64,000 bases of DNA from a virus, in the IMG/VR virus record IMGVR_UViG_3300013117_000027; one strand, 5' to 3'. A program made the translations under genes and the position numbers. Positions within the stretch are counted from its first letter, which is position 1, and every line of letters starts with the position of its first letter. Shown here in pieces: positions 15,987-64,000 of this stretch. The notes beneath the pieces are model-generated. The model saw only the letters and a program-made list of their open reading frames with translations. It ran no database searches and was not told where the DNA came from.

Positions 15987-18190
15987 TGGTAAAGCAATAC
16001 GATATAAAAAACAATATAAAGAGTATACAAAGTGTACTTGTTAGTGAGTCTATAAAAGAACGTTCTAATCTACAGTTACTCAAATCAGAGGAAGCTATAA
16101 GAAATGTTCTACAATCGTACTCAGATAAAATGAATGCAACAGGTGATAAACTTACAAAGTTATCTCAACATCTTGTTAATTCTAAAGATATAATATCTAA
16201 AGATAAGTTCAATGATCTGTTTAATAGTCTTTACATTGATATCAAGACCTTGTATCAACACATAGACTATGTTGATGAAGTCTTATCCCTTAATCTTCAT
16301 AGAAATAGAAAGTTCTTTAATGTTCTTAAGAAAAGGATGAGAGAGTTATGGAATAAGTTAGTTCTTACAAGACTTAATATTACAGATAGTTCTCAGTTTG
16401 ACGAATCATACTTTGAAGCATTCTCTACTATTAATTCTAAACATAGATATGTAGGAGTTTTAATAGACAAGAAATCTGGCGTAATGACTCTAGAACCAAG
16501 AGAAAGTTTTATTCATAATAAGAAATACTTAATAAAAGATATACAGACCAAAACATATCCTGTTCATAACAAAGAAGGTGGAGTTATCCATACTACTAGT
16601 TATCTTAATAGTTTTGCATCGTCTTATAGAAGAGATGGACAGCGTGACATGTTAGAGAACGGATTATGGAAAGAACAGATACTTTGTAATGATATTCCTG
16701 ATATCAAGTACGATATCAAAGATGATCTAACAGAGATAGACCAACTCTTTAAGTCTGTTAACGGTATTCTATCGTTTGTAGACATAGAGTTTACACAACC
16801 TATTCAATTTAACGACATAGAGATTGACTTATTCGGTGACTACCCTATAACGTTAGTTTCTATAATGTGTAAGAGTGAAAGCGATGGTGTTTGGCAACCA
16901 GTAAAGAAGCTTGATAGTATTGAAGTTGATAATGGGTATCAGACTTATGATAACTCAAAAGAAGAGACGGCTTTCGACGTACTTTCTATCAAGAATATTG
17001 AACGTACCAATGCTAGATTTATGAGACTAGTATTCAACCAGAACAACTACGACATCCTTGATAGCAGTGAGTTTTCTATTAAAGATCTAGAGGATAAGAT
17101 TAATAATGATCTCTCTGAAAGACGTTATGAGGTTGTTAAGTTAGATGGAGGATCTGATGATCGCCCAGCGATCCCAAAGAGTTATGATAATGACTCTCTA
17201 TATTCACAGGTAACTGACGTAATAGAAGATACTAGAAGTTTAGAGGAGACTATAACTAAAATTATAAATATATTGGAACCGACACCTAAGCTTCAGTCTA
17301 TCGACTTTAAAAAGACACTTAAGTATGAAGTTGGCGCTTGGTCTATAGAACCAAGGTACCAATCTTACTCAGGAACAGGTAAGTTTAACTCAGGAGATTA
17401 TCCTATACGTGATAGGTCACTGATCTCCGTTAACTTACTTACAAAGCAAGAAGATATAAAATATAATACTTGTAACTGGTTCGTTAGTAACCGAGGATAT
17501 AATAAACATATACCTATTATAGAAAATGATAGGAGAGTTAGAAAAGAACCTGCTTATATTATAAATCCTGATTATTTTACAGATTATACTCAAGGTACAT
17601 TTATTCACTTAGACTTACCTTCTTCTAATATAGACTTTGCTGATAATACAAAGATATGGATAAATGGCGGAAGGGAGAACGGTGGAGAACCTTATCCTTT
17701 AACAGCTTTTACTTGGATAAGACTTAATTCTACTCTTATACACATAGAAGATATACAGGATATTTATAAGAATGATTATGTTATACAATATGTGCCAGCG
17801 TCATTAGATGCAGTATATATGTATACTCTAGAGAAATTAGGAGAGGAAGAAGAAGGAGATCTTCTACCTTATGAGGTTGTAGCGTCTAGAAAATCTATGT
17901 TAAGGTACTTCCTTAGTTCGATAGATAAGACTAATGAGTACGTCATAAAGACGACGAGAGCTACTACGTTAGAGGCTGAGCTATGGTTTAGAACTAATAG
18001 ACACACTTTATGTATCACGAAGGCTGTAGAAATGTTATACAGTGATAAGATACCTCCTGCTATGAGACCGACTTTAAATGTTATCACAGGTACTAGATCT
18101 AGTAAAGACCTCATAGTGTCTAGAGATATAGATAGTAATATGGACTTACCACCAATGATGCCTATAATCATCGAAAGGGACATTACATAA
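15986..18190 (+). CDS. Virion structural protein (paralogous family with N-terminal helical segment)
   Basis: KFNDLFNSLYIDIKTLY...EAFS...IDKKSGVMTL pattern shared with ORFs at 19580, 25793 and 29267. Confidence 0.5.
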   Translation: MVKQYDIKNNIKSIQSVLVSESIKERSNLQLLKSEEAIRNVLQSYSDKMNATGDKLTKLSQHLVNSKDIISKDKFNDLFNSLYIDIKTLYQHIDYVDEVLSLNLHRNRKFFNVLKKRMRELWNKLVLTRLNITDSSQFDESYFEAFSTINSKHRYVGVLIDKKSGVMTLEPRESFIHNKKYLIKDIQTKTYPVHNKEGGVIHTTSYLNSFASSYRRDGQRDMLENGLWKEQILCNDIPDIKYDIKDDLTEIDQLFKSVNGILSFVDIEFTQPIQFNDIEIDLFGDYPITLVSIMCKSESDGVWQPVKKLDSIEVDNGYQTYDNSKEETAFDVLSIKNIERTNARFMRLVFNQNNYDILDSSEFSIKDLEDKINNDLSERRYEVVKLDGGSDDRPAIPKSYDNDSLYSQVTDVIEDTRSLEETITKIINILEPTPKLQSIDFKKTLKYEVGAWSIEPRYQSYSGTGKFNSGDYPIRDRSLISVNLLTKQEDIKYNTCNWFVSNRGYNKHIPIIENDRRVRKEPAYIINPDYFTDYTQGTFIHLDLPSSNIDFADNTKIWINGGRENGGEPYPLTAFTWIRLNSTLIHIEDIQDIYKNDYVIQYVPASLDAVYMYTLEKLGEEEEGDLLPYEVVASRKSMLRYFLSSIDKTNEYVIKTTRATTLEAELWFRTNRHTLCITKAVEMLYSDKIPPAMRPTLNVITGTRSSKDLIVSRDIDSNMDLPPMMPIIIERDIT

Positions 18191-18912
18191 TGGATGAAAA
18201 ACAGACTCTTTATCCTGAGAGTGCTTTACTAACATCGACATTTATACCTTATTACTTTGAGCCAAAGAAGGTATCAACAATAGATAGTACTCTTATTAAG
18301 GATGATAATTATACTATAGAACAAGATGTTAACGGACTATCATCTATCATATCAGTAAGAGATATACCTTATATTGATATATCTAAATATGATCACCTAA
18401 GGAAGCGTTTTTTCTGGACAGATCAGTTTGATAATAGATGGAGAGTATTTCTCCCAGGAGACTGGATAGAACAAGAGCAATCATTTTGGCCAGAAGACTT
18501 CACATATAATGTTTATCAAAGTATAGAAGGATTACTTGATGGTGATCTATGGACTGTAACATCTTTAAAGTTAGAAGACTTTAATATACAACAGTTTAGA
18601 CCTATATCTGTGAGAGTTAACGGAGTTGAACTAGAGGATGTAAGTAACTACGCAGGAGATAGAAATATTATACCTAAGTTAGACAATATAGATCCTTCTA
18701 CTAATAAACAGTTTTACTACGATATGAAGAACACTATATATACTAACCAAGATTTCGATCTTTTTGAAGATGATAATATAGAGATTACTTATTTTAAGAA
18801 CATTGATAGTGTTCAGATCTATGGAAGACTGAATACTAATGTTACAAATCTCTCATCTTACACACCGGTGGTAGATTACTACATAATAAAACTGTCTAGC
18901 CAGAACCTTTAG
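18190..18912 (+). CDS. Hypothetical structural protein
   Basis: Coupled ORF; C-terminal TPVVDYYIIK resembles the ends of neighbouring structural ORFs. Confidence 0.5.
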   Translation: MDEKQTLYPESALLTSTFIPYYFEPKKVSTIDSTLIKDDNYTIEQDVNGLSSIISVRDIPYIDISKYDHLRKRFFWTDQFDNRWRVFLPGDWIEQEQSFWPEDFTYNVYQSIEGLLDGDLWTVTSLKLEDFNIQQFRPISVRVNGVELEDVSNYAGDRNIIPKLDNIDPSTNKQFYYDMKNTIYTNQDFDLFEDDNIEITYFKNIDSVQIYGRLNTNVTNLSSYTPVVDYYIIKLSSQNL

Positions 18913-18920
18913 GAGTTTAA

Positions 18921-19580
18921 ATGCATAAAATAGATATACAACAGTTAAAACTTGATTGGGATGAATGTAGAAATTTAACACAGTTAGAAAAAATATATAG
19001 TTGTTCAAGAAAGACATTAGCTAGAAGACTTAACGGTATAGGTATAGACACAAATAAAAGACTATATCCTATTATAGAAGGTAAGAAAGAGTGTAGAGAA
19101 TGTGGTAATACATTAACTATAGACAACTTTCATTCTATAAAAGTGACTATATGCAGAAAGTGTATTAAGAAGTATAATAAACAGTATCAATGTAATAATA
19201 GATCTCATATAAATGCTAGCAGGAAACAACGTTATATCAATGATACTGGATACAGAATAGAATGTAATATAAGAAGTAGATTATGTAATGTTCTTGCTGG
19301 TAAGAATAAATCTGCTTCAACTAAAGAACTTTTAGGTTGTACAATAGATGAACTCAAAACGCATCTTCAGTCTACAGCTATTATTAATGGTTACAAAGAC
19401 TTCGATATTAATAGCTACTTAGGACATGAATATCACATAGACCATATACGTCCATGTTCTTCTTTTAATCTTAAAGATGAAGAAGAACAAAGACAGTGTT
19501 TTAACTGGTCTAACTTACAAATCCTTTCAGCTAAAGAGAATTTTAAGAAGGGTAATAAACTAACAGGACAAAATCTATAA
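18921..19580 (+). CDS. Free-standing HNH homing endonuclease
   Basis: CxxC...CxxC zinc motif, YHIDHIRPCSSF...CFNWSNLQILSAKENFKK HNH core, own AGGAG RBS; interrupts the structural operon. Confidence 0.85.
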   Translation: MHKIDIQQLKLDWDECRNLTQLEKIYSCSRKTLARRLNGIGIDTNKRLYPIIEGKKECRECGNTLTIDNFHSIKVTICRKCIKKYNKQYQCNNRSHINASRKQRYINDTGYRIECNIRSRLCNVLAGKNKSASTKELLGCTIDELKTHLQSTAIINGYKDFDINSYLGHEYHIDHIRPCSSFNLKDEEEQRQCFNWSNLQILSAKENFKKGNKLTGQNL

Positions 19581-55987: not shown

Positions 55988-56297
55988 ACTCACGAAACTT
56001 TTACAAGAAAAAGCTCAAGATTATAGAACATCTATAGACTTTGTTAATGCTATACATAAAGCAGGACTGAGTCAACCTTGTTGTATGATAGTAGAGCTTC
56101 TCTTTTTAAACAAGACTTACGATAGGATTAAGTTTGTTCTACTGTTCACAGACAAAGCGTTTGAGAAATACGTAGATGAACTGTACGAGTTCTTACTACA
56201 GTATGACTCTAATAAGAATACTGAACTTCTAAGATTTAAGAAAAAAGAGTCTTGGTGGACTAGACTTCTTAACTTGTTCTATAAAAAAAGGACTTAA
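55971..56297 (+). CDS. Hypothetical protein
   Basis: TTG start with AGGA RBS; last gene of the + strand block. Confidence 0.45.
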   Translation: MISQPKLTKLLQEKAQDYRTSIDFVNAIHKAGLSQPCCMIVELLFLNKTYDRIKFVLLFTDKAFEKYVDELYEFLLQYDSNKNTELLRFKKKESWWTRLLNLFYKKRT

Positions 56298-56301
56298 AGT
56301 C

Positions 56302-56487
56302 CTAATGTATTACATGTACCATTATCTTATACTTATAAGGTAACTTAGAGTACCATTGTACAAAGTCTACAATACTTTTTAGGTCTCCTCGTTCTGAACA
56401 GTCACCTGCATGTACAACGACGTCGCCGTCAGGCATCTTAAGTTTATCATGCATGCCATGTGTATCACTAATCGCTACTATCTTCAT
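56302..56487 (-). pseudogene. Truncated calcineurin-like metallophosphoesterase
   Basis: ISDTH and HAGD motifs present; stops just before the expected GNHD motif. Confidence 0.75.
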
Positions 56488-56689
56488 CGTCTGTCTCCGT
56501 ATTATACTCTGCCCAAGCTAGTAACATCTCCATCCATTCTTCTGGATACTTATCTTCATCTAGATCTATATTAAACGAAAAGTGTTGTAGATCATCTATA
56601 AGTTTATGTATAAATAGATCTAATGTTATCTTTTCTGGATGACATATCTCTGCTAACTTGCTAAGTTTTTTTCCTTTAAATGTTCTCAT
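56468..56689 (-). CDS. Hypothetical protein
   Basis: Coupled ORF. Confidence 0.45.
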   Translation of the reverse strand: MRTFKGKKLSKLAEICHPEKITLDLFIHKLIDDLQHFSFNIDLDEDKYPEEWMEMLLAWAEYNTETDDEDSSD

Positions 56690-57036
56690 TAGAATGGTAA
56701 CTCACGAGCTGTGCCACTTTCTTGCGAAGCACCTGTTACTTGGTTCTCATGATTTTGTCTGAATACTTCTTCTGGATCCATATTTTTATATTTGTTAGCG
56801 AATCCTTTTCCAACTTCTTTTATGAGTTCATCACTTAAAGAACCCATTACATTAGCGAACGCTTTCCTGGCGTCTTCCATACTCTTCTTAGATGTGTACT
56901 CATGTACAACCGAGTCATATTCATAAGTGTTAATCTTGGTATCTACTTTAATAGTAGAACTCTTTACTAACTTTATTGTGTACTCTGTCTTATTAGTGCC
57001 GAGTGTCTTCGTTGTTGTTTCTATTAACTTAAACAT
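56689..57036 (-). CDS. Hypothetical protein with ELPF C-terminus
   Basis: GGAG RBS; ends ...ARELPF. Confidence 0.5.
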   Translation of the reverse strand: MFKLIETTTKTLGTNKTEYTIKLVKSSTIKVDTKINTYEYDSVVHEYTSKKSMEDARKAFANVMGSLSDELIKEVGKGFANKYKNMDPEEVFRQNHENQVTGASQESGTARELPF

Positions 57037-57044
57037 CTTATCTC

Positions 57045-57893
57045 CTAGTAGTTTAAATATATACGTGTTATATCTTTGTACTCTTCAACAGTAGAATCAT
57101 TCATCTCTCTTAAGAGTTTTATCTCTGGGATAGAGTAAGGTCTATCGTATTCTATCCCGAATCTCATCTTGATAGTGTCTACTATATCTTTATCTAGATG
57201 TGATAACTCGTTTGTTATCATTGTTCTCATGACTGTCATTATCTCATGAGATCTATCTTCTGATGCTATGTCTTCTGTAACACCTACTATGAATGTTTCA
57301 TCTGACGCTCCAGAGTTAAGATCTATAAGTTTCATTATACTTTCTATCATATTTACTTTAAGATCAACCGCTTTATTCTTCATGACTCTGACTTTGATCT
57401 CTTCTGCTGTAGGAAGATTACCTTGAAGTTCTGTTAAGAGTTCTGAAGAAGCTTCTAGTACATTCTTGATGTTCCTTGCCATTTCTCTAGGAGCCTTAAC
57501 AAGTTTGTTCTCTTTTATAAGATCTATGATGTTCTTAAGAACGTAGTGAAAAGCAAACGTAGTGAAGTTAACTCCTACCTCAGGATCGAATCTGTCTACA
57601 GCTTCTATGATCCCTACCTGGGCTTGCTGAAAGACATCGTCTATGATAGTGTTGTTATTGATTTTCCTACAGTACTTAATAGCGTACTTCATGCCAAAGC
57701 CACCGTTAGAGATTATGATTCTATCTCTTAAAGCTTTGTACTTTTTGAACAGCGAGGGATTACCAGGCAGAAGTGTCTCCATTAAGCGGAGTTGCCTGAA
57801 GTTATCTATATTTTCTGCTTTAGGTGGGAGAGGATACTTATTTATGTATGCCTCTATTCTTTTGCGAAGTCTAGCGTATGGGTCTTTTTTCAT
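57045..57893 (-). CDS. Sigma70-family RNA polymerase sigma factor
   Basis: Region 2 DVFQQAQVGIIEAVDRFDPEVGVNFTTFA, region 3 PTAEEI, region 4-like IKMRFGIE...YSIPEI. Confidence 0.85.
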   Translation of the reverse strand: MKKDPYARLRKRIEAYINKYPLPPKAENIDNFRQLRLMETLLPGNPSLFKKYKALRDRIIISNGGFGMKYAIKYCRKINNNTIIDDVFQQAQVGIIEAVDRFDPEVGVNFTTFAFHYVLKNIIDLIKENKLVKAPREMARNIKNVLEASSELLTELQGNLPTAEEIKVRVMKNKAVDLKVNMIESIMKLIDLNSGASDETFIVGVTEDIASEDRSHEIMTVMRTMITNELSHLDKDIVDTIKMRFGIEYDRPYSIPEIKLLREMNDSTVEEYKDITRIYLNY

Positions 57894-58207
57894 TAAAGTT
57901 TCTCCACGACATTACCAGGGATCCCTTGATTATTAAACTTGTTAACAAGCTTAGCACTTTGGTCTATAACAAAGTCTGGACATTGGTAATTTCGTGAGTC
58001 TTTTATCTTGTAATCCCATATATAGTCATATAGATCGTTTTCAATACACCATACAACCATGTCTTCCTGAGTTAATTCAGAATCCCATAAGTATATATGT
58101 TTGCCAACATCTATAAGTAGTTTCAGTTCTTGTTTTAATCTTTTAATATCACTATTGAGTATTACTTTAAAGTCTATGTAAATATCTACTGCATTCTTTA
58201 TGTTCAT
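57893..58207 (-). CDS. Hypothetical protein (possible degenerate HAD-like fold)
   Basis: IYIDF...IYLW...PDFVID pattern. Confidence 0.4.
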   Translation of the reverse strand: MNIKNAVDIYIDFKVILNSDIKRLKQELKLLIDVGKHIYLWDSELTQEDMVVWCIENDLYDYIWDYKIKDSRNYQCPDFVIDQSAKLVNKFNNQGIPGNVVEKL

Positions 58208-58209
58208 GC

Positions 58210-58368
58210 TTACCTTTGTAGTTCGTTATCGAGTTGTTCTACTAAAGACATGAAGTCCTCGAAGTGTAAAGCACAGTACACGTCACTACGGTTATGTTTA
58301 AAAACAAGTAGCGGTGTAAGGTCCCTATTATCTCTAGCGCTCTGCTCCAAGGAACTCCATGTATTATT
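58210..58368 (-). pseudogene. C-terminal half of a phage Holliday-junction-resolvase-like gene
   Basis: Unlisted frame NNTWSSLEQSARDNRDLTPLLVFKHNRSDVYCALHFEDFMSL...stop; no N-terminal half nearby. Confidence 0.6.
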
Positions 58369-59159
58369 TATCTTAGTCCACCAGCTAGTCTTATACGAAT
58401 ATCTTTTTTAAAAGATTCTTCTTGAGCATCTAACCATTCTAACAACTTTATTAAACTTTTTTCTTCTAATGAACCTTTTATACTATTAGATGATTTAGAT
58501 ATCATCTGAATATTATCTTTATTAGACGGCCCACCTTTTGACACCGGAATTATATGATCAAATACCATATTTTTATATGTTACTATTCTATTAGAATCGT
58601 ACTTACATGTTTTACCATATGAATCTAATATAATCTGTCGTATATCATCTAATGTGATATTACATTCTGTGTTATACTTTTTTGATCTAGCTACCATACA
58701 TGTTTTAGCGTTAATAGATTTCTTTAATAGTTTATCAGCTATTTTATCTATATTACGTTTATGATATAACTTCAACATAGATATATATTTCTCTTTCCAT
58801 ATATCTTTGCTATGTTTCTTTCTTTTTCGTACTCGTCTTCTTTCATTCTTAACTTTTATATATTCTTTAGAAGGTGGATTTCTTTTGTTCCATGCTTTCT
58901 TTATACATTTATTTGAACAGTATTTTCGTTTATGCTTACTTTTAAACGAACCATTACAATGTGAACATATACCTGTATATAATGAACGTTCGGTTTTGTT
59001 CTTCAGTATGTTATCTTTTGAAAGTTGTTTATGTTTATCCCAATTGCCAATCTTTTTAAGATTGTTTAATATAGTTGATTTAGAGATGTTATATTTTTTT
59101 GATAACTCTCTAGTGGACTTCCCACTTATGTATTCTTTAAGAATATCATTATATAGCAT
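58368..59159 (-). CDS. Free-standing HNH homing endonuclease
   Basis: N-terminal HTH, CSHC..YCSNKC, FDHIIPVSKGGPSNKDNIQMISKSSNSIKG; own promoter and AGGAG RBS. Confidence 0.85.
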   Translation of the reverse strand: MLYNDILKEYISGKSTRELSKKYNISKSTILNNLKKIGNWDKHKQLSKDNILKNKTERSLYTGICSHCNGSFKSKHKRKYCSNKCIKKAWNKRNPPSKEYIKVKNERRRVRKRKKHSKDIWKEKYISMLKLYHKRNIDKIADKLLKKSINAKTCMVARSKKYNTECNITLDDIRQIILDSYGKTCKYDSNRIVTYKNMVFDHIIPVSKGGPSNKDNIQMISKSSNSIKGSLEEKSLIKLLEWLDAQEESFKKDIRIRLAGGLR

Positions 59160-59187
59160 ACTACTCCTAGTTTAGTTAGTATACTAT

Positions 59188-59216
59188 AATGTAGTACATT
59201 CACATACAAATGTCAA
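59188..59216 (-). promoter_or_regulatory. Sigma70-type promoter with TGYNAAT spacer element and A-rich UP tract
   Basis: TTGACA-tttgtaTGTGAATgtac-TACATT. Confidence 0.65.
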
Positions 59217-59302
59217 TAGATATTTACTTTTTTTTTTTATTTTTTAGTCTATGTGGTCCGCATCCATCGTTCTCATATGAGTGAATAGTTATCGTATATG
59301 TA

Positions 59303-59617
59303 TTAGGTTGTAGTTGCATTCTTATCCTCTATATATTCTATTGATCCACTCATGTCTTCATACTCTAAGACTCTCGATCCGAATGTGCATTGGAGCCACC
59401 TTTTAAGTATGATCGAATCATCTCCTTTGATACTATGTTTACTACTACTGCTAGCAGTAGGAACATATATCCTAGCATGGTGATTAGGACATAAAAAAAC
59501 CCTGTTAAACTCTTTATTACTTCCACCATCAGATTGTTGCTCGATGTGGTGGGACTCGATCTGTGTCCTGTGTTCTGTTTCATAGTCACATCCTGGAAAG
59601 TTACATTTATAATTCAT
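59303..59617 (-). CDS. Small HNH endonuclease
   Basis: CNFPGC, HHIEQQSDGGSN...LCPNHH. Confidence 0.75.
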   Translation of the reverse strand: MNYKCNFPGCDYETEHRTQIESHHIEQQSDGGSNKEFNRVFLCPNHHARIYVPTASSSSKHSIKGDDSIILKRWLQCTFGSRVLEYEDMSGSIEYIEDKNATTT

Positions 59618-59861
59618 CTAAAAGTTCCTGTGGTATATCTTCGTCGCAATCATTTATTTTTATTGTCATAGGTATGTTTTTAATACAGTCAAGACATATA
59701 ACATTCGTCGTATATGTAGTCATCTCATCAACATCTTCGTATACTAGTACACCTAAATGTTTATTACATATAGGACAATGTACTTGTCTTTCTACTCTTG
59801 TAAATTTGTGACTATATGCTTCTCCATGTATAAATATATGTCTAAAAGTATTAAAGATCAA
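59607..59861 (-). CDS. Small zinc-ribbon protein
   Basis: CPIC...CLDC; start uncertain. Confidence 0.4.
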   Translation of the reverse strand: MIFNTFRHIFIHGEAYSHKFTRVERQVHCPICNKHLGVLVYEDVDEMTTYTTNVICLDCIKNIPMTIKINDCDEDIPQELLDEL

Positions 59862-59903
59862 TATGTCAAATCTATTGTAAATATAATAAAATCAAGGAGT
59901 TAG

Positions 59904-60046
59904 AACGGGGGGTAGGATTCGAACCTACATACTACACATATCCTTGATGAATACCCATGTTTGGTAGCGGCGCTTCACCCGTTAGGGATCCTTTTAAGTA
60001 GGGAATTTAGAGTTCCCCGTGTCTACCATCATTCCACCACCCCCGC
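59904..60046 (-). tRNA. Amber (CUA) tRNA-like gene with 72-nt variable region
   Basis: Acceptor GCGGGGG/CCCCCGT, class II-type D arm GTGGAATGATGGTAGACAC, anticodon arm GGGAA-CTCTAAA-TTCCC, T arm GTAGG-TTCGAAT-CCTAC; no encoded CCA. Confidence 0.8.
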
Positions 60047-60051
60047 ATAAG

Positions 60052-60118
60052 TCGCACTAGCAGGAATCGAACCTACGAAACAGGACAAGAACATCCCTGT
60101 TCCCAACTCCATGGTGCA
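60052..60118 (-). ncRNA. D-armless tRNA-like element
   Basis: TGCACCA/TAGTGCG acceptor-like stem, one hairpin AACAGGG/TCCTGTT, canonical T arm GTAGG-TTCGATT-CCTGC. Confidence 0.5.
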
Positions 60119-60129
60119 AAAAAAAAAAA

Positions 60130-60256
60130 AAGACATGCTGGATTTTCACCAGCTCCACACTTACTTCGGGACCTGTTTTTCATACGTATACGATCCTCAC
60201 ATTCCACGTTACACGCGCGGTGTGGCCTAGCAGCATGAATAACATGCTTATGTCTT
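60130..60256 (-). ncRNA. Expanded tRNA-like structured RNA
   Basis: AAGACAT/ATGTCTT closing stem, GCATG-TTATT-CATGC hairpin, CCACAC/GTGTGG branched domain, T-arm-like GCTGG-TGAAAAT-CCAGC. Confidence 0.45.
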
Positions 60257-60303
60257 TTCCCAATGTATGTTACTCGTGTAAAGTACATACTATTGATAAC
60301 TGA

Positions 60304-60468
60304 TTAACCTGATCTCTCAGTGGAACATACCGTACATCTATATGATGTAGATGCTGTTGTACCTTTTAATGTAGAGTTCATTACTCGCATATTTTGGCCA
60401 TACTTACCGTCTTGGTACTGGTTAATACATTTAGGTCCGCCGTTACATTTTAAAACTTTAGCTGCCAT
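60304..60468 (-). CDS. Small Cys-rich (zinc-binding) phage protein, 54 aa
   Basis: MAAKVLKCNGGPKCINQYQDGKYGQNMRVMN...YRCTVC; below the ORF-track cutoff; overlaps the previous gene end. Confidence 0.55.
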   Translation of the reverse strand: MAAKVLKCNGGPKCINQYQDGKYGQNMRVMNSTLKGTTASTSYRCTVCSTERSG

Positions 60469-60676
60469 CTTTTTTCTTCCTTAATTTTATTGTTTTACCA
60501 CGTTTAGATTTTCTTACTACCTCTTTTATAGATAGTTTTGAGTCTCCACCACAGTCCATTGTGTCAGCAATGTCATCTGGTAGACCACAACAATCAGCAG
60601 ATAAGAAGTCACATCCACTGCAACCATACTCATCTGGTTCTTTTACTACATGAATACTATACTTTTCTGATTTCAT
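60458..60676 (-). CDS. Small Cys-rich hypothetical protein
   Basis: CSGCDF..CC...C; start at ATG 60676 after AAAGG. Confidence 0.5.
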   Translation of the reverse strand: MKSEKYSIHVVKEPDEYGCSGCDFLSADCCGLPDDIADTMDCGGDSKLSIKEVVRKSKRGKTIKLRKKKDGS

Positions 60677-60791
60677 ATATACCTTTAAGTTAGCCATGGT
60701 ACCAAGATAGTTGTCGAGCTGTGCTCCCATACACAGCGATTTAATTCAGATTGCCAGTTCACTCTGCGATAGGTTTTATTTATTTGTTCGA

Positions 60792-61625
60792 CTATAGGTT
60801 ATGTTTAAGAAGGAACTCAGGATTGATACTACCATCGTATAAGAACTTAAGTTCTAATACTTCGCTTGGTTTAATATCGATCTCATCAATATTACGTTTA
60901 GCGTTAAGTTTAGACTCGTCTAAAAGTTCATGATATGAGTATAGTTTCTTTCCTTTTCTTCCAGTTTTTTGTCTCTTACTAAATTGTTCCATAAATAGTT
61001 CTAAGTCTTCTTTAAGATAGTTTTGTCTTTCGTCTTCGAAGTTTAAAGTTGCATCGTCTCCATATAGATATAATGCTAATCTATCATATGACTTAGCAGC
61101 CTCAATCTCATCGTCATAACATTTACGATATCGTTTACCCATATATGTTATATGAGTCTCGTATGTATTAAATTTTGTAGGAAATACTCCACAATATTTG
61201 TGTGTAGTTTTTCGTTTACCTTGATGTGATATAGCTGATCTACCGTAAACTTTCTTTTTCTCTTCTTTAGACATTTCCTTAAATCTTTTAACTTGAGATT
61301 TAGACATCTTTTCACGGACTTCTTTTGAGAATACTTTTAACCCATCTTCTTGGTTTATCATGTTATAACCTATTGTAGGATCCATACTATTTAAAGTATC
61401 TATCCATCTCGCTTCAGCACGTATAAGTTCTTTTTCACATGAAACTTTTTCTACAACTTGAAACTCAAAGTTTTCAAAACCGTATTTTCTTAATGCTCTA
61501 TGAAATGCATATTCAGTATGTTTATAAGCTCTTTTATGAGTGCTTATCCGTTCTTCTAAAGACTTAGTGGTAAGACCTATATAGATCTTACTATTTACTT
61601 TGTTAGTAGCCTTATAAATATTCAT
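60792..61625 (-). CDS. Free-standing GIY-YIG homing endonuclease with AP2-like DNA-binding domain
   Basis: NIYKATNKVNSKIYIGLT..R..H, GYN, YCGV...EAAKSYD...YGDDATLNF; AAAGGA RBS. Confidence 0.88.
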   Translation of the reverse strand: MNIYKATNKVNSKIYIGLTTKSLEERISTHKRAYKHTEYAFHRALRKYGFENFEFQVVEKVSCEKELIRAEARWIDTLNSMDPTIGYNMINQEDGLKVFSKEVREKMSKSQVKRFKEMSKEEKKKVYGRSAISHQGKRKTTHKYCGVFPTKFNTYETHITYMGKRYRKCYDDEIEAAKSYDRLALYLYGDDATLNFEDERQNYLKEDLELFMEQFSKRQKTGRKGKKLYSYHELLDESKLNAKRNIDEIDIKPSEVLELKFLYDGSINPEFLLKHNL

Positions 61626-61700
61626 TATAATCCTTTCATTATACAATATCTAGACTTGTTATCCAAGTCTTATACGTTATACTATACTATAATGTTCGGA

Positions 61701-62792
61701 TTAAAGCGACCATTTTAACAAGAATTCTGGGTTCACGCATTTAAAACTGATTCTACTGTCAGTCTTAAGTCTCCATACATCTCCTTCTTGTTTAATATCT
61801 GCTAACGTACTTCTTGATTTAGAAAGTTCTACAATGTCTGTCATCGAACCAGGAAGTCTTATATCTTCATCACGTATAGGTACGTGTTGTAGATCTACCT
61901 TGGCGCACATTGTTATAAACTTATCATAAGGTACATTCTCACCTTTATCTATATCATATATGTTGAAGGCATAGAAATCTAGTTCATTAAGTCTATACTT
62001 ATTTTTTTGAATGGCAGGTCCTACTATCTCACCTTGGATAGCATAGTTGCCACCAAGACGTCTTAACTTAGATCTTATGTTCTTCTTATAAAATATTGAC
62101 CAATAGTTATTTGTTGTTGGTCTCTTGAGCCATATGTTTCTAGAACATACAAACTCTTCAGTCTTATATGTGATACCTAAGAACTTCTTACGTACCATAG
62201 CAAATGTTGCTGATTGACCGTCTAACTTTTCTGTACGATAGAATATCAAATCTTTAAAGCGTCTCACAATAGATGGAGAAGATTGTATTCTTGTTTCATC
62301 TGTCTTCTTAAGGAAGTCTGGCCATCCACCCTTACGTTTTGTTGTAAGTTTTCTGAACCATTTATACCTAAGGAAGTATTTATATATACGTCCATGTTTA
62401 GCAGCTTCTGCAGCTTGTGCAGCCATTGCTTTTTCTGTAGCAAGTTCTGGATCATGCTTAACGACGTCTAAGATATCTGTTACGTCATCACCTTCTTTAA
62501 CAGACTCTTTTAATTTATTAGGGAAAGCAGTTATTGGTAATGCTAATCCCTGAGCGGCGAATCCCATAAACTTTGCTGTCTTAACACGGTACTTTCTTGA
62601 TTCCATGAACTCAAACTGTTCCCATGGAGGAAGTATACTGTCTATTTCAAAGTATACACAACGATCACCTTCTTTAAATTCGCCCTTTTTTACTATACAT
62701 TGCCAGCCAAGTATGTATGCCTTCTCGATAGTCTTAGCGCCTTTAATAGACTCTATCTGTTTGACTATCTGTATTGATGCTAGTTTTCTCAT
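61701..62792 (-). CDS. RNA ligase (Rnl2/DRB0094-like with N-terminal OB-like domain)
   Basis: RKLASIQ, YFEIDS, motif I TEKLDGQS, QGEIVG, FYAFNI, EGDVWR, SFK. Confidence 0.88.
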   Translation of the reverse strand: MRKLASIQIVKQIESIKGAKTIEKAYILGWQCIVKKGEFKEGDRCVYFEIDSILPPWEQFEFMESRKYRVKTAKFMGFAAQGLALPITAFPNKLKESVKEGDDVTDILDVVKHDPELATEKAMAAQAAEAAKHGRIYKYFLRYKWFRKLTTKRKGGWPDFLKKTDETRIQSSPSIVRRFKDLIFYRTEKLDGQSATFAMVRKKFLGITYKTEEFVCSRNIWLKRPTTNNYWSIFYKKNIRSKLRRLGGNYAIQGEIVGPAIQKNKYRLNELDFYAFNIYDIDKGENVPYDKFITMCAKVDLQHVPIRDEDIRLPGSMTDIVELSKSRSTLADIKQEGDVWRLKTDSRISFKCVNPEFLLKWSL

Positions 62793-62798
62793 TGTTCT

Positions 62799-63059
62799 CT
62801 ACTTGTATTCGTTAATCGTTTTTATGATAATATCTTCACGATTAATACCAGCCCATCTAGTGTGCTCGTTACCTTCATCATCTATAAGAATGATTGTAGG
62901 TGTGCGTGTTATATTATACTTAGTTCTTTCCTGCGAGTCTTTCTTCGCAGCATTTACCTTTGTTACAGGTATCTCGGTCTTTGTAGATACGTTATTTAGT
63001 ATCGATTCCATTAGCCGACATGGACTACATGTGGCCTGTGAAAAGAATAATAGTCTCAT
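62799..63059 (-). CDS. Thioredoxin-like protein
   Basis: FSQATCSPC, ITRTPTIIL. Confidence 0.8.
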   Translation of the reverse strand: MRLLFFSQATCSPCRLMESILNNVSTKTEIPVTKVNAAKKDSQERTKYNITRTPTIILIDDEGNEHTRWAGINREDIIIKTINEYK

Positions 63060-63637
63060 AGTTTCTCTTTCATATGTTTTAAACATTCTTTTACTCTATC
63101 ATCCATTGTTACAGATGTTATCTCAATGAAGTTCTTACAAGGAAATAACTCTTTTAATATGAATGTTATCTTAGCATCAGCTGCAGCTCTCCACTTCTCA
63201 TCGAAGTCTCGTGCAGGTCTTACTCCATCACTCACTGGTTTTATAACAGGAGGTAGATGAAATATGATGTCGTATCTCTGAGGAGTATTTATACGTGTTA
63301 GTTTTTTAAAGGTGTCATTCATCCATATAATATGCCTGGGATCGTTAACATCCCTAAGTTCCAGAGCGTATAGATACCCTAGATGCACGGGACTGTCTGT
63401 GATAATAATGTCTACATCTTTGCCCACAGAGTCTTCCCAATCTATCTGCTTTTCCATTATTCTAAATTGGTCTAGTAAGTTTTCTACAGGACCATACTTT
63501 ACTTGGTACCTTCTAGCGTACTCTTGTATAAGTTCTATGTTCTTGTAGTCTTTTATACCTCTACATGTTCCGGAGAGAACCCTAGCTGTTGATGTCTTAC
63601 CAGAGCCAGGAGTTCCTACAAATCCTATTCTTTTCAT
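63056..63637 (-). CDS. NadR/AAA_28-like P-loop kinase/ATPase
   Basis: GFVGTPGSGKTS, EYAR, IITDSP, DGVR; start at MKRIG. Confidence 0.8.
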   Translation of the reverse strand: MKRIGFVGTPGSGKTSTARVLSGTCRGIKDYKNIELIQEYARRYQVKYGPVENLLDQFRIMEKQIDWEDSVGKDVDIIITDSPVHLGYLYALELRDVNDPRHIIWMNDTFKKLTRINTPQRYDIIFHLPPVIKPVSDGVRPARDFDEKWRAAADAKITFILKELFPCKNFIEITSVTMDDRVKECLKHMKEKL

Positions 63638-63638
63638 C

Positions 63639-63989
63639 TTATTCCTTATCGTTAAACACGATAGTCTGGTGTTTATACATTCTTCCGACAATGTTTTGTG
63701 GACCAAGATAAGTTTTATCAGTTGCTTGAGGAACTGTTTCAGCGTCGACTTGGTTAAACGTATATATCTTAGTTTTATCGTTTATACGTCTTTCCGGTGC
63801 GTTTCCACACGAAACAACTGTTACTTTGTTACTTCCTGGCGTTATAACATCTGTTGCATCTACTGTAGTATCTACTACAAGGTAGTATCCACGTCTCATC
63901 TTTTCATTGTTATGAAGTTCTGTCATTGATTCTAAGTGAAATACATCACCGGTTTCTACTTTTGATTTTCTTGGTGCTACGTGTATCAT
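63639..63989 (-). CDS. Hypothetical protein
   Basis: AAGGA RBS at the window edge. Confidence 0.5.
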   Translation of the reverse strand: MIHVAPRKSKVETGDVFHLESMTELHNNEKMRRGYYLVVDTTVDATDVITPGSNKVTVVSCGNAPERRINDKTKIYTFNQVDAETVPQATDKTYLGPQNIVGRMYKHQTIVFNDKE

Positions 63990-64000
63990 TACGTTTCCTT

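Follow-up and report, generated by a model that had tools for sequence, protein, structure and literature searches.

A candidate mobile homing-endonuclease cassette with C-terminal replacement in the 3′ end of a phage RNA ligase gene

Introduction

Mobile open reading frames (mORFs) with C-terminal replacement have been described from fungal mitochondria, namely in atp6, atp9 (a GIY-YIG case), cox2, and nad3 of Glomus sp., in atp9 of Rhizopus, and in cox2 of Mortierella (PMC3630166). The same paper cites atp6 of Allomyces macrogynus as an earlier case, and some of the fungal mORFs are in phase with the native piece of the gene that they entered (PMC3630166). In phages, free-standing GIY-YIG and HNH endonucleases of T4-like phages (SegA-G and MobA-E) are known for intronless homing (PMC2988022, PMC2330249), as the two papers show. 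Phage homing endonuclease genes (HEGs) have been described inside introns and inteins, between genes, and within genes that they split in two. Here, we describe a locus in 64,000 nt of DNA of an uncultured marine phage (IMG/VR record IMGVR_UViG_3300013117_000027; this whole stretch is called ‘the window’ below), in which a HEG of the GIY-YIG family directly follows an RNA ligase gene and ends, in frame, in a second version of the last 11 ligase codons. We propose, with a probability of roughly 0.6, that the locus represents a mobile homing-endonuclease cassette with C-terminal replacement, situated inside the 3′ end of the ligase gene.

Results

The nuclease reading frame ends in a copy of the ligase C-terminus

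The HEG begins 75 nt past the ligase gene on the minus strand, which carries all genes of 57–64 kb, and the two genes end alike (coordinates are collected in Table 1). The ligase gene closes with ..ISFKC VNPEFLLKWSL-TAA, followed by TC CGAACA, and the HEG with ..KFLYDGS INPEFLLKHNL-TAG, followed by T CGAACA AAT. We refer to the two terminal pieces as tail1 (GTG AAC CCA GAA TTC TTG TTA AAA TGG TCG CTT TAA, at the end of the ligase) and tail2 (ATC AAT CCT GAG TTC CTT CTT AAA CAT AAC CTA TAG, at the end of the HEG). Their likeness begins precisely at the V/I codon, which is two codons past the lysine of the ligase motif SFK, and the residues ahead of that codon (SFKC and YDGS, respectively) are unrelated. 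The original prediction, made from the letters of this DNA, had reported both sequences with their positions, a stretch NPEFLLK identical in protein with five of its seven codons different, and the word CGAACA close after both stops; on re-reading, all of this proved correct, with CGAACA standing 2 nt past the ligase stop and 1 nt past that of the HEG.

The shared peptide is a hallmark of the ligase. Across 233 homologues, [IV]NP[DE]FLLK plus three residues is the near-invariant end of the family (I or V in 232, N in 220, P in 211, F in 224, the two leucines in 231 and 218, and K in 193), and exactly 11 residues follow FKx in 171 of the 233. Because this motif is the near-invariant end of the ligase family, the last 11 codons of the HEG are those of a ligase gene end, and the tail on the HEG reading frame is a copy of the ligase 3′ end.

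To measure the background of such matches, every pair of open reading frames (ORFs) of at least 80 aa in the window (3003 pairs) was compared over the final 11 residues, aligned from the stop. The ligase and the HEG share 8 of 11 residues; 3001 other pairs share at most 4, and the only other exception (18190-18912 with 18921-19580) shares 5. Both of these top-scoring pairs consist of a gene directly followed by a nuclease-like ORF. The concern raised along with the original prediction, that matches of this kind might occur at chance frequency, is not borne out within the window, where the ligase/HEG match stands above the background.

Although alike in protein, the two copies are spelled differently. 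The residues shared by tail1 and tail2 use different codons at six of eight positions in the window and at six of six in a second locus (L037, see below). Together, these 12 differences in 14 compare with 7.6 expected from random draws from the codon usage of the window (P 0.012), and L037, which had not been used to raise the hypothesis, yields a P of about 0.014 by itself. As the codon differences go beyond random draws, the copies are more divergent than saturation would give. In this small sample, the excess fits selection against nucleotide identity, whether for self-immunity, against repeat deletion, or against repair on the wrong copy.

The ligase and the nuclease

The ligase consists of an N-terminal PHA02142 OB fold and an RNA_ligase (nucleotidyltransferase) domain (Pfam) and can be aligned over its full length to the RNA ligase of Naegleria gruberi (5cot, E 2e-47), with SFKCVNPEFLLK placed against SFKAISNAYLEK. 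It has the build that defines the Rnl5 type (NgrRnl / DraRnl), i.e. an OB domain together with a nucleotidyltransferase domain that ends in SFK. The lysine of this SFK is aligned with that of the NgrRnl SFK, which we take to be the motif V lysine.

The catalytic domain of the HEG product is matched by Pfam PF01541 (GIY-YIG, 4e-12) and, among PDB profiles, by I-TevI (1mk0, 3e-9); R26, H30, E71, and N88 do not vary across an alignment of 12 HEG sequences, in which Y4 and Y15 reach a conservation of at least 90%. An AP2/ERF-type DNA-binding module follows at approximately residues 140-200 (PDB profile hits of 4e-9 to 3e-3), for which AF2 confidently predicts three strands and a helix. The model is of low confidence (pLDDT 43-60) in the C-terminal 55 residues, which include the tail. 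The most likely start of the gene is the ATG at 61625 (277 aa), with an AAAGGA ribosome-binding site 5 nt ahead of it, which corrects the TTG at 61646 given in the ORF list. Comparison with the HEG of a related locus (L036; dS 0.87, dN 0.087, over 161 codons) gives a dN/dS of 0.10, and the gene is accordingly under purifying selection.

In the spacer between the two genes, a promoter-like site (TGGATA, 16 nt, TATAAT at 61665-61638 on the minus strand) matches a promoter at 10 of 12 positions. In a predicted RNA fold of 61626-61703, the ligase stop and the next 3 nt (UAAUCC) form a stem with GGAUUA, which lies at the ribosome-binding site of the HEG, and the promoter-like site falls between these two pairing segments; the fold is weakly supported (z = -2.0; 9 of 200 shuffles fold equally well).

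The HEG lineage is small, with about 20 proteins and, at 50% identity, 10 clusters. Among 5.8 billion proteins, a search returned the HEG of the window, P0122 (85% identical), and roughly ten others with identities of 43-54%, and a profile search of 1.84 billion cluster representatives returned ten clusters with full-length similarity. Eight relatives (P0122-P0129) end in YDG[STK]-INP[EDN][FL]LL[KH]xxx, and the pattern YDG[STK]-INPxFLLKxxx closes nine relatives of 50-85% identity. Among the ten clusters, some tails are intact (INPDFLLKYSE, and also one truncated HEG joined to STINPEFLLKNGD), others are partly deleted (..YDGTLKYGE, ..DGTLIKYNLN, and ..IENSDFLLKWGE), and others again are decayed or unrecognisable (including IPYNFFIT and VPYNFFIKYDEQFA). 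The HEG of the locus L010, which has the tail IPYNFFIT, retains the catalytic residues; because HEGs with decayed tails keep these residues, the tail peptide appears to be dispensable for the nuclease. Among 50,697 phage records, megablast gave no hit to the region, and tblastn found ligases at ≤33% identity only and no full-length relative of the HEG. Scans of IMG/VR recovered neither a 20-mer of the right flank (the DNA past tail2) nor the back-translated DG-x-INP-x-FLLK junction.

The nuclease recurs behind ligase genes of separate clades

At every locus for which DNA upstream of the HEG is available (the window, L037 from JGI, and L010/L038 from IMG/VR), the HEG lies 46-75 nt after an Rnl5-type ligase gene. 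The window, L037, and L010 share the layout with both copies, in which the upstream copy completes the ligase in frame and the HEG stands between the two. In L037, the ligase ends in ..SFKIVNPDFLMIYDS-stop, a 46-nt spacer follows, and the HEG ends in INPDFLLKYGD-stop; in L010/L038, the ligase ends in ..INPNFSLKYNE-stop and the HEG in IPYNFFIT-stop, followed by TGG CGAACAAAA. A ligase 82% identical to that of the window (P0002) and the HEG at 85% identity (P0122) are both listed on one contig of 2562 nt. The genes that flank the ligase and the HEG in L010 look, by eye, unrelated to those of the window. A second tail was found in none of 27 ligase loci without this HEG; a tail-like second hit in L016 falls inside a bacterial gene and was rejected as chance. 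A scan of genome contigs with the ligase alignment found ligases at ≤40% identity only, in bacterial metagenome-assembled genomes and without a HEG.

In a ligase tree computed without the tails, the four carrier ligases fall into three separate clades (each with an SH-aLRT of at least 98), and each of these clades also contains other ligases. Between carrier loci, the HEGs are 44-53% identical and the ligases 38-47%, and the same database holds more than 7000 ligase homologues versus about 20 HEGs. Taken together, the scatter of the carriers over clades, the HEG and ligase identities, the rarity of the HEG, and the purifying selection acting on it favour repeated horizontal entry into ligase genes over a single ancient insertion. 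The suggestion of the original prediction that the nuclease homes into a conserved gene end without splicing is in keeping with this architecture, and the HEG lineage is found at ligase ends again in unrelated phage backgrounds.

The ligase of L010 and a relative (P0115) share a rare FSL in place of FLL in the tail, and P0113, of the same clade, has FLL; P0115 may be a further carrier of the nuclease.

A second hit at the same junction

The HEG of L036 is 85% identical in nucleotides to that of the window and ends in LYDGTIKE with a stop of its own. Exactly between the HEG body and a remnant of tail2, at 502-736 of L036, there is an insert with a 65-aa ORF (531-728, no Pfam match), which is flanked by GGAACAATAA and GGAGAAATAA. 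The tail2 of L036 (INPEFLLTHNI-stop) lies outside any ORF and is joined to a flank that is 91% identical to 60714-60791 of the window. The exact placement of the insert at the HEG/tail2 junction suggests that the same junction was struck a second time, and the attachment of tail2 to the flank, apart from the HEG, that the downstream copy goes with the flank.

Which of the two copies is native

A direct repeat leaves two ways of delimiting the element, [tail1 + spacer + HEG] and [spacer + HEG + tail2], and five observations favour the former. Two of them are given above, namely that tail2 goes with the flank in L036 and that it appears dispensable for the nuclease. The relatives of the L037 ligase (58-72% identical) all end in [VI]N[PST]DFLLKY[GSEQ]E and thereby resemble tail2 of L037. 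Scored together with the 233 family tails, this tail2 (INPDFLLKYGD) is top-scoring, and tail1 of the same locus (VNPDFLMIYDS) is lower than all 233. In the window, tail1 falls at the 34th percentile and tail2 at the 55th, and tail1 is below the median in all four carrier ligases (34th, 17th, 0th for L037, and 5th percentiles). The changes in tail1 hit near-invariant positions, with E replaced by L in P0002 and LK by MI in L037. In the fungal cases, the inserted C-terminus lies upstream and the native one downstream, and the same order here supports tail1 as the incoming copy (PMC3630166). At the protein level and at one locus, L037, the downstream copy would then be the native one. Tail1 is probably the replacement ligase end supplied by the cassette, and tail2 is probably the native ligase end, displaced. 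The original prediction, which had the endonuclease carrying the duplicate, is in this respect turned around: the evidence favours the present tail of the ligase as the incoming copy.

Several points weigh against this reading or limit it. The nearest other relative of the window ligase, P0003 (VNPTFLLKHNE), matches tail2 at 8 of 11 residues and tail1 at 7 of 11, a non-deciding difference. The sequence CGAACAAA follows tail2 both in the window and in L010, the HEGs of which are 52% and the ligases 41% identical, and this suggests that tail2 and its flank may be able to travel with the HEG. Between the window and L036, the tail2 peptide has been kept (3 of 26 non-synonymous versus 7 of 7 synonymous sites changed), and a neutral relic would need either refreshment by homing or selection for homology with the target. 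Finally, we infer the HEG-less state of neighbouring ligases from the rarity of the HEG and from contigs whose lengths match no HEG contig. The synonymous change in tail2 exceeds that in the HEG body (0.515 per site; P about 0.01), which suggests that the tail2 copies of the window and L036 stem from different native alleles or that element-level selection acts for a match to the target.

Discussion

Proposed mechanism

On the reading that we prefer, the insertion point would lie between ..SFKC and [V/I]NPEFLLK.., and the cassette would have three parts: (1) a substitute for the last 11 ligase codons with a stop and a few flanking bases (tail1), (2) the 75-nt spacer with its promoter-like site and ribosome-binding site, and (3) an endonuclease gene of the GIY-YIG/AP2 kind that has no stop codon. 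The ligase would remain whole because its gene now terminates in tail1, and the endonuclease frame would continue into the 11 displaced native codons (tail2) and use the old ligase stop. During mixed infection, the enzyme may cut cassette-free ligase alleles near the conserved NPxFLLK-coding DNA, and repair would then copy the cassette, with the ligase body as left homology and tail2 plus the flank as right homology. The different codon spelling of tail1, together with its odd residues, would shield the carrier from its own enzyme, and this divergence would also make it rarer that the cassette is lost through recombination between the repeats or that repair proceeds unproductively on tail1. 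If this mechanism holds, alleles without the HEG should run from ..SFKx straight into a tail2-like tail and TCGAACAAAT...

Alternative explanations

That the likeness of the tails reflects chance or convergence, or that a group I intron harbours the HEG and tail2 is the real second exon, we regard as vanishingly improbable. The shortness of the repeat (33 nt) is all that speaks for it; chance is countered by the excess of identities over the 3001 other pairs of the scan (and over the pair with five), and by a motif that is a signature of the ligase family and recurs across the whole HEG lineage. A group I intron was rejected: no Rfam intron model matches within 59600-61800 (E up to 0.1), tail2 adjoins the HEG body with 0 nt in between and hence no room for an intron core, and tail1 with its own stop already makes a complete ligase ORF without splicing. 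A more serious contender, if on balance an unlikely one, is that the ligase with tail1 is native and that the HEG is intergenic, like the seg and mob genes of T4, and carries a captured ligase end (tail2, its stop, and CGAACAAA), be it as a C-terminal peptide or as a right homology arm from an old imprecise event. The occurrence of CGAACAAA after tail2 in L036 as well as in the window and the distant L010 is what such a capture would leave, as are the co-inheritance of tail2 with the HEG in the PYNFFI clade (L010, L039, and P0130-P0132) and the conservation of the tail2 peptide between the window and L036, and the direct repeat makes the boundaries of the element formally ambiguous. A native tail should be the better conserved of the two, but it is tail1 that is altered at near-invariant positions, and in L037 tail1 is aberrant and tail2 matches the tails of the relatives. 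A captured peptide also sits poorly with tail2 copies that are decayed or partly deleted in several otherwise intact HEGs or, in L036, lie outside any ORF, and the higher synonymous change in tail2 than in the HEG body speaks more for separate origins than for co-inheritance.

It would equally be imaginable, and to us improbable, that the insertion is old, immobile, and vertically inherited, with the HEG kept for a role in exclusion or regulation and the duplication a functionless fossil. All three close relatives (the window, the P0002 contig, and L036) carry the HEG, and no presence/absence polymorphism has been seen directly: two public marine runs, which share about 5% of the words of the region, yielded no joints over 56000-64000 and 151-nt scraps only, which carry no information on HEG-less variants. 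Against vertical inheritance stand carriers in three distant ligase clades among thousands of ligases, the very few HEGs, and HEGs that are more alike than the ligases of their hosts; neither the surplus of codon differences between the copies nor a tail2 conserved like a ligase end would be expected in a fossil.

A wider class of elements

Returning to the mobile cassette with C-terminal replacement, we tentatively raise, as a doubtful extension, that it could belong to an unrecognised class of phage homing elements that enter conserved genes at their last few codons, involve neither intron nor intein, and keep two copies of the gene end that differ in spelling for separate reasons. The upstream copy would be driven away from the target sequence, conferring immunity to self-cleavage and preventing repeat deletion, and the downstream copy would be kept near the target consensus by element-level selection, as a right homology arm. 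Under such selection of a homology arm, the displaced piece would keep the ligase peptide despite change at every synonymous site. On this view, the HNH-like ORF at 18921-19580 would count as another, independent instance.

The claim of the original prediction that two nuclease families in this genome use one general mode fares less well, as its first case, the same 18921-19580, has a match of 5 of 11 residues and no Pfam HNH hit at E <0.01, and no homologues of its upstream gene were found.

Other features of the window

Table 1. Positions of the ligase, the HEG, and the repeated pieces in the window
Feature	Position	Strand	Remarks
RNA ligase gene	61701-62792	-	363 aa, Rnl5 type, intact; Pfam PF21189 5e-25, PF09414 3e-21
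Tail1 (VNPEFLLKWSL + TAA)	61701-61736	-	last 11 ligase codons; upstream tail copy
CGAACA after ligase stop	61693-61698	-	belongs to duplicated unit
Spacer, ligase to HEG	61626-61700	-	75 nt; promoter-like site, 7-bp hairpin, AAAGGA ribosome-binding site
HEG, whole gene	60792-61625	-	directly downstream of ligase
GIY-YIG HEG body, residues 1-266	60828-61625	-	ends ..KFLYDGS, without own stop codon
Tail2 (INPEFLLKHNL + TAG)	60792-60827	-	in-frame last 11 residues of HEG
CGAACA after HEG stop	60785-60790	-	
Right flank	60714-60791	-	T CGAACAAAT...ATCGCAGAGTGAACTGG..., hairpin GCTGTG..CACAGC; conserved in L036

The plus-strand pair 18190-18912 and 18921-19580 ends in KLSSQNL-stop and KLTGQNL-stop, respectively, and four of the five residues shared in the last 11 are differently coded. 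HNH-like motifs are visible by eye in the second ORF; for the upstream gene, there is no Pfam hit, and no relatives were found in IMG/VR or the phage records.

Beyond the right flank, 60111-60713 (minus strand) holds two cysteine-rich ORFs of 90 aa and 54 aa without Pfam hits, which separate the flank from a tRNA-like region. In L036, a different stretch of 224 nt (857-1080) replaces these ORFs, and this is another variable spot beside the cassette. At 59904-60046 (minus strand), 143 nt match an Rfam tRNA model over its whole length (41.6 bits, E 7e-7); from this, we infer a tRNA with an insert of about 70 nt. ARAGORN with default settings called no tRNA in the whole window and, with introns allowed, only an unconvincing tRNA-SeC. 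A second piece resembling a T-arm lies beside it at 60051-60125 (minus strand), and L036 has a similar region; this may be an interrupted tRNA gene cluster. Past the tRNA-like region are two HNH ORFs on the minus strand, 58368-59159 and 59303-59617 (Pfam HNH 5e-5 and 1e-4), the tails of which do not match their upstream neighbours and the L036 counterparts of which are 76-80% identical in nucleotides.

Comparison with known systems

Should our reading hold, the conserved ends of phage genes would be open to invasion at no cost to the phage, and annotators could recognise the element by a simple signature, a nuclease ORF that closes with the same residues as the gene upstream of it. The C-termini of such nuclease ORFs, and odd ones of host genes, would then be scars of mobile elements and not features of the proteins. 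A 33-nt target region beside a natural immune allele would also offer a compact system for the co-evolution of recognition, immunity, and homology arms.

Integrants that replace the 3′ end of their target gene (prophage 21 in icd and integrants of tRNA genes) likewise carry a diverged substitute end, and they depend on site-specific integrases and attachment sites, whereas the cassette would rely on a homing endonuclease and recombinational repair. With I-TevI, encoded in the td intron of T4, the HEG shares the N-terminal GIY-YIG domain and the modular order of nuclease domain, linker, and DNA-binding domain; unlike I-TevI, it is not encoded in an intron, and its DNA-binding module is of the AP2 type instead of a zinc finger, minor-groove helix, and helix-turn-helix.

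The Seg and Mob endonucleases resemble the HEG in being phage-borne, free-standing (GIY-YIG in part), and adjacent to a conserved gene that is the presumed target and, if the cassette is mobile as we propose, in spreading by double-strand-break repair with co-conversion of the flanks, which is suggested here by analogy. The hairpin in the spacer (a predicted fold) and the internal promoter-like site likewise recall T4 endonuclease genes that stay untranslated on read-through transcripts. Those elements lie between genes or split a gene into two polypeptides (Aeh1 nrdA, T4 gene 60/39, and phage 25 gene 43), whereas here the gene end is present twice and has probably been exchanged, with the nuclease frame running into the former end. 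The word stem ‘duplicat’ is absent from a 2010 review of T4 (PMC2988022), and a full-text literature search, of limited coverage and thus giving absence of evidence only, found no phage case of C-terminal replacement.

The closest likeness is to the fungal mORFs, and the strategy is not new in kind (PMC3630166). In both settings, a conserved gene has an endonuclease ORF in its 3′ part, a C-terminus upstream of the ORF (inserted in the fungi, and probably so here) keeps the host gene whole and in frame, a second C-terminus lies downstream (native in the fungi and, at the protein level and at one locus, also here), protein similarity between the copies goes along with divergence in DNA (64-81% in Glomus), and no intron or intein is involved. 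The differences lie in the host (here a tailed phage), in the target (an RNA ligase, in at least three ligase clades), in the length of the duplicated piece (11 codons plus about 8 nt, versus roughly 50 to 280 nt in Glomus), and in expression, as the HEG has a promoter-like site and a ribosome-binding site of its own and the fungal ORFs are fused to the host gene. The locus thus presents an architecture known from fungal mitochondria in a new setting, that of a phage.

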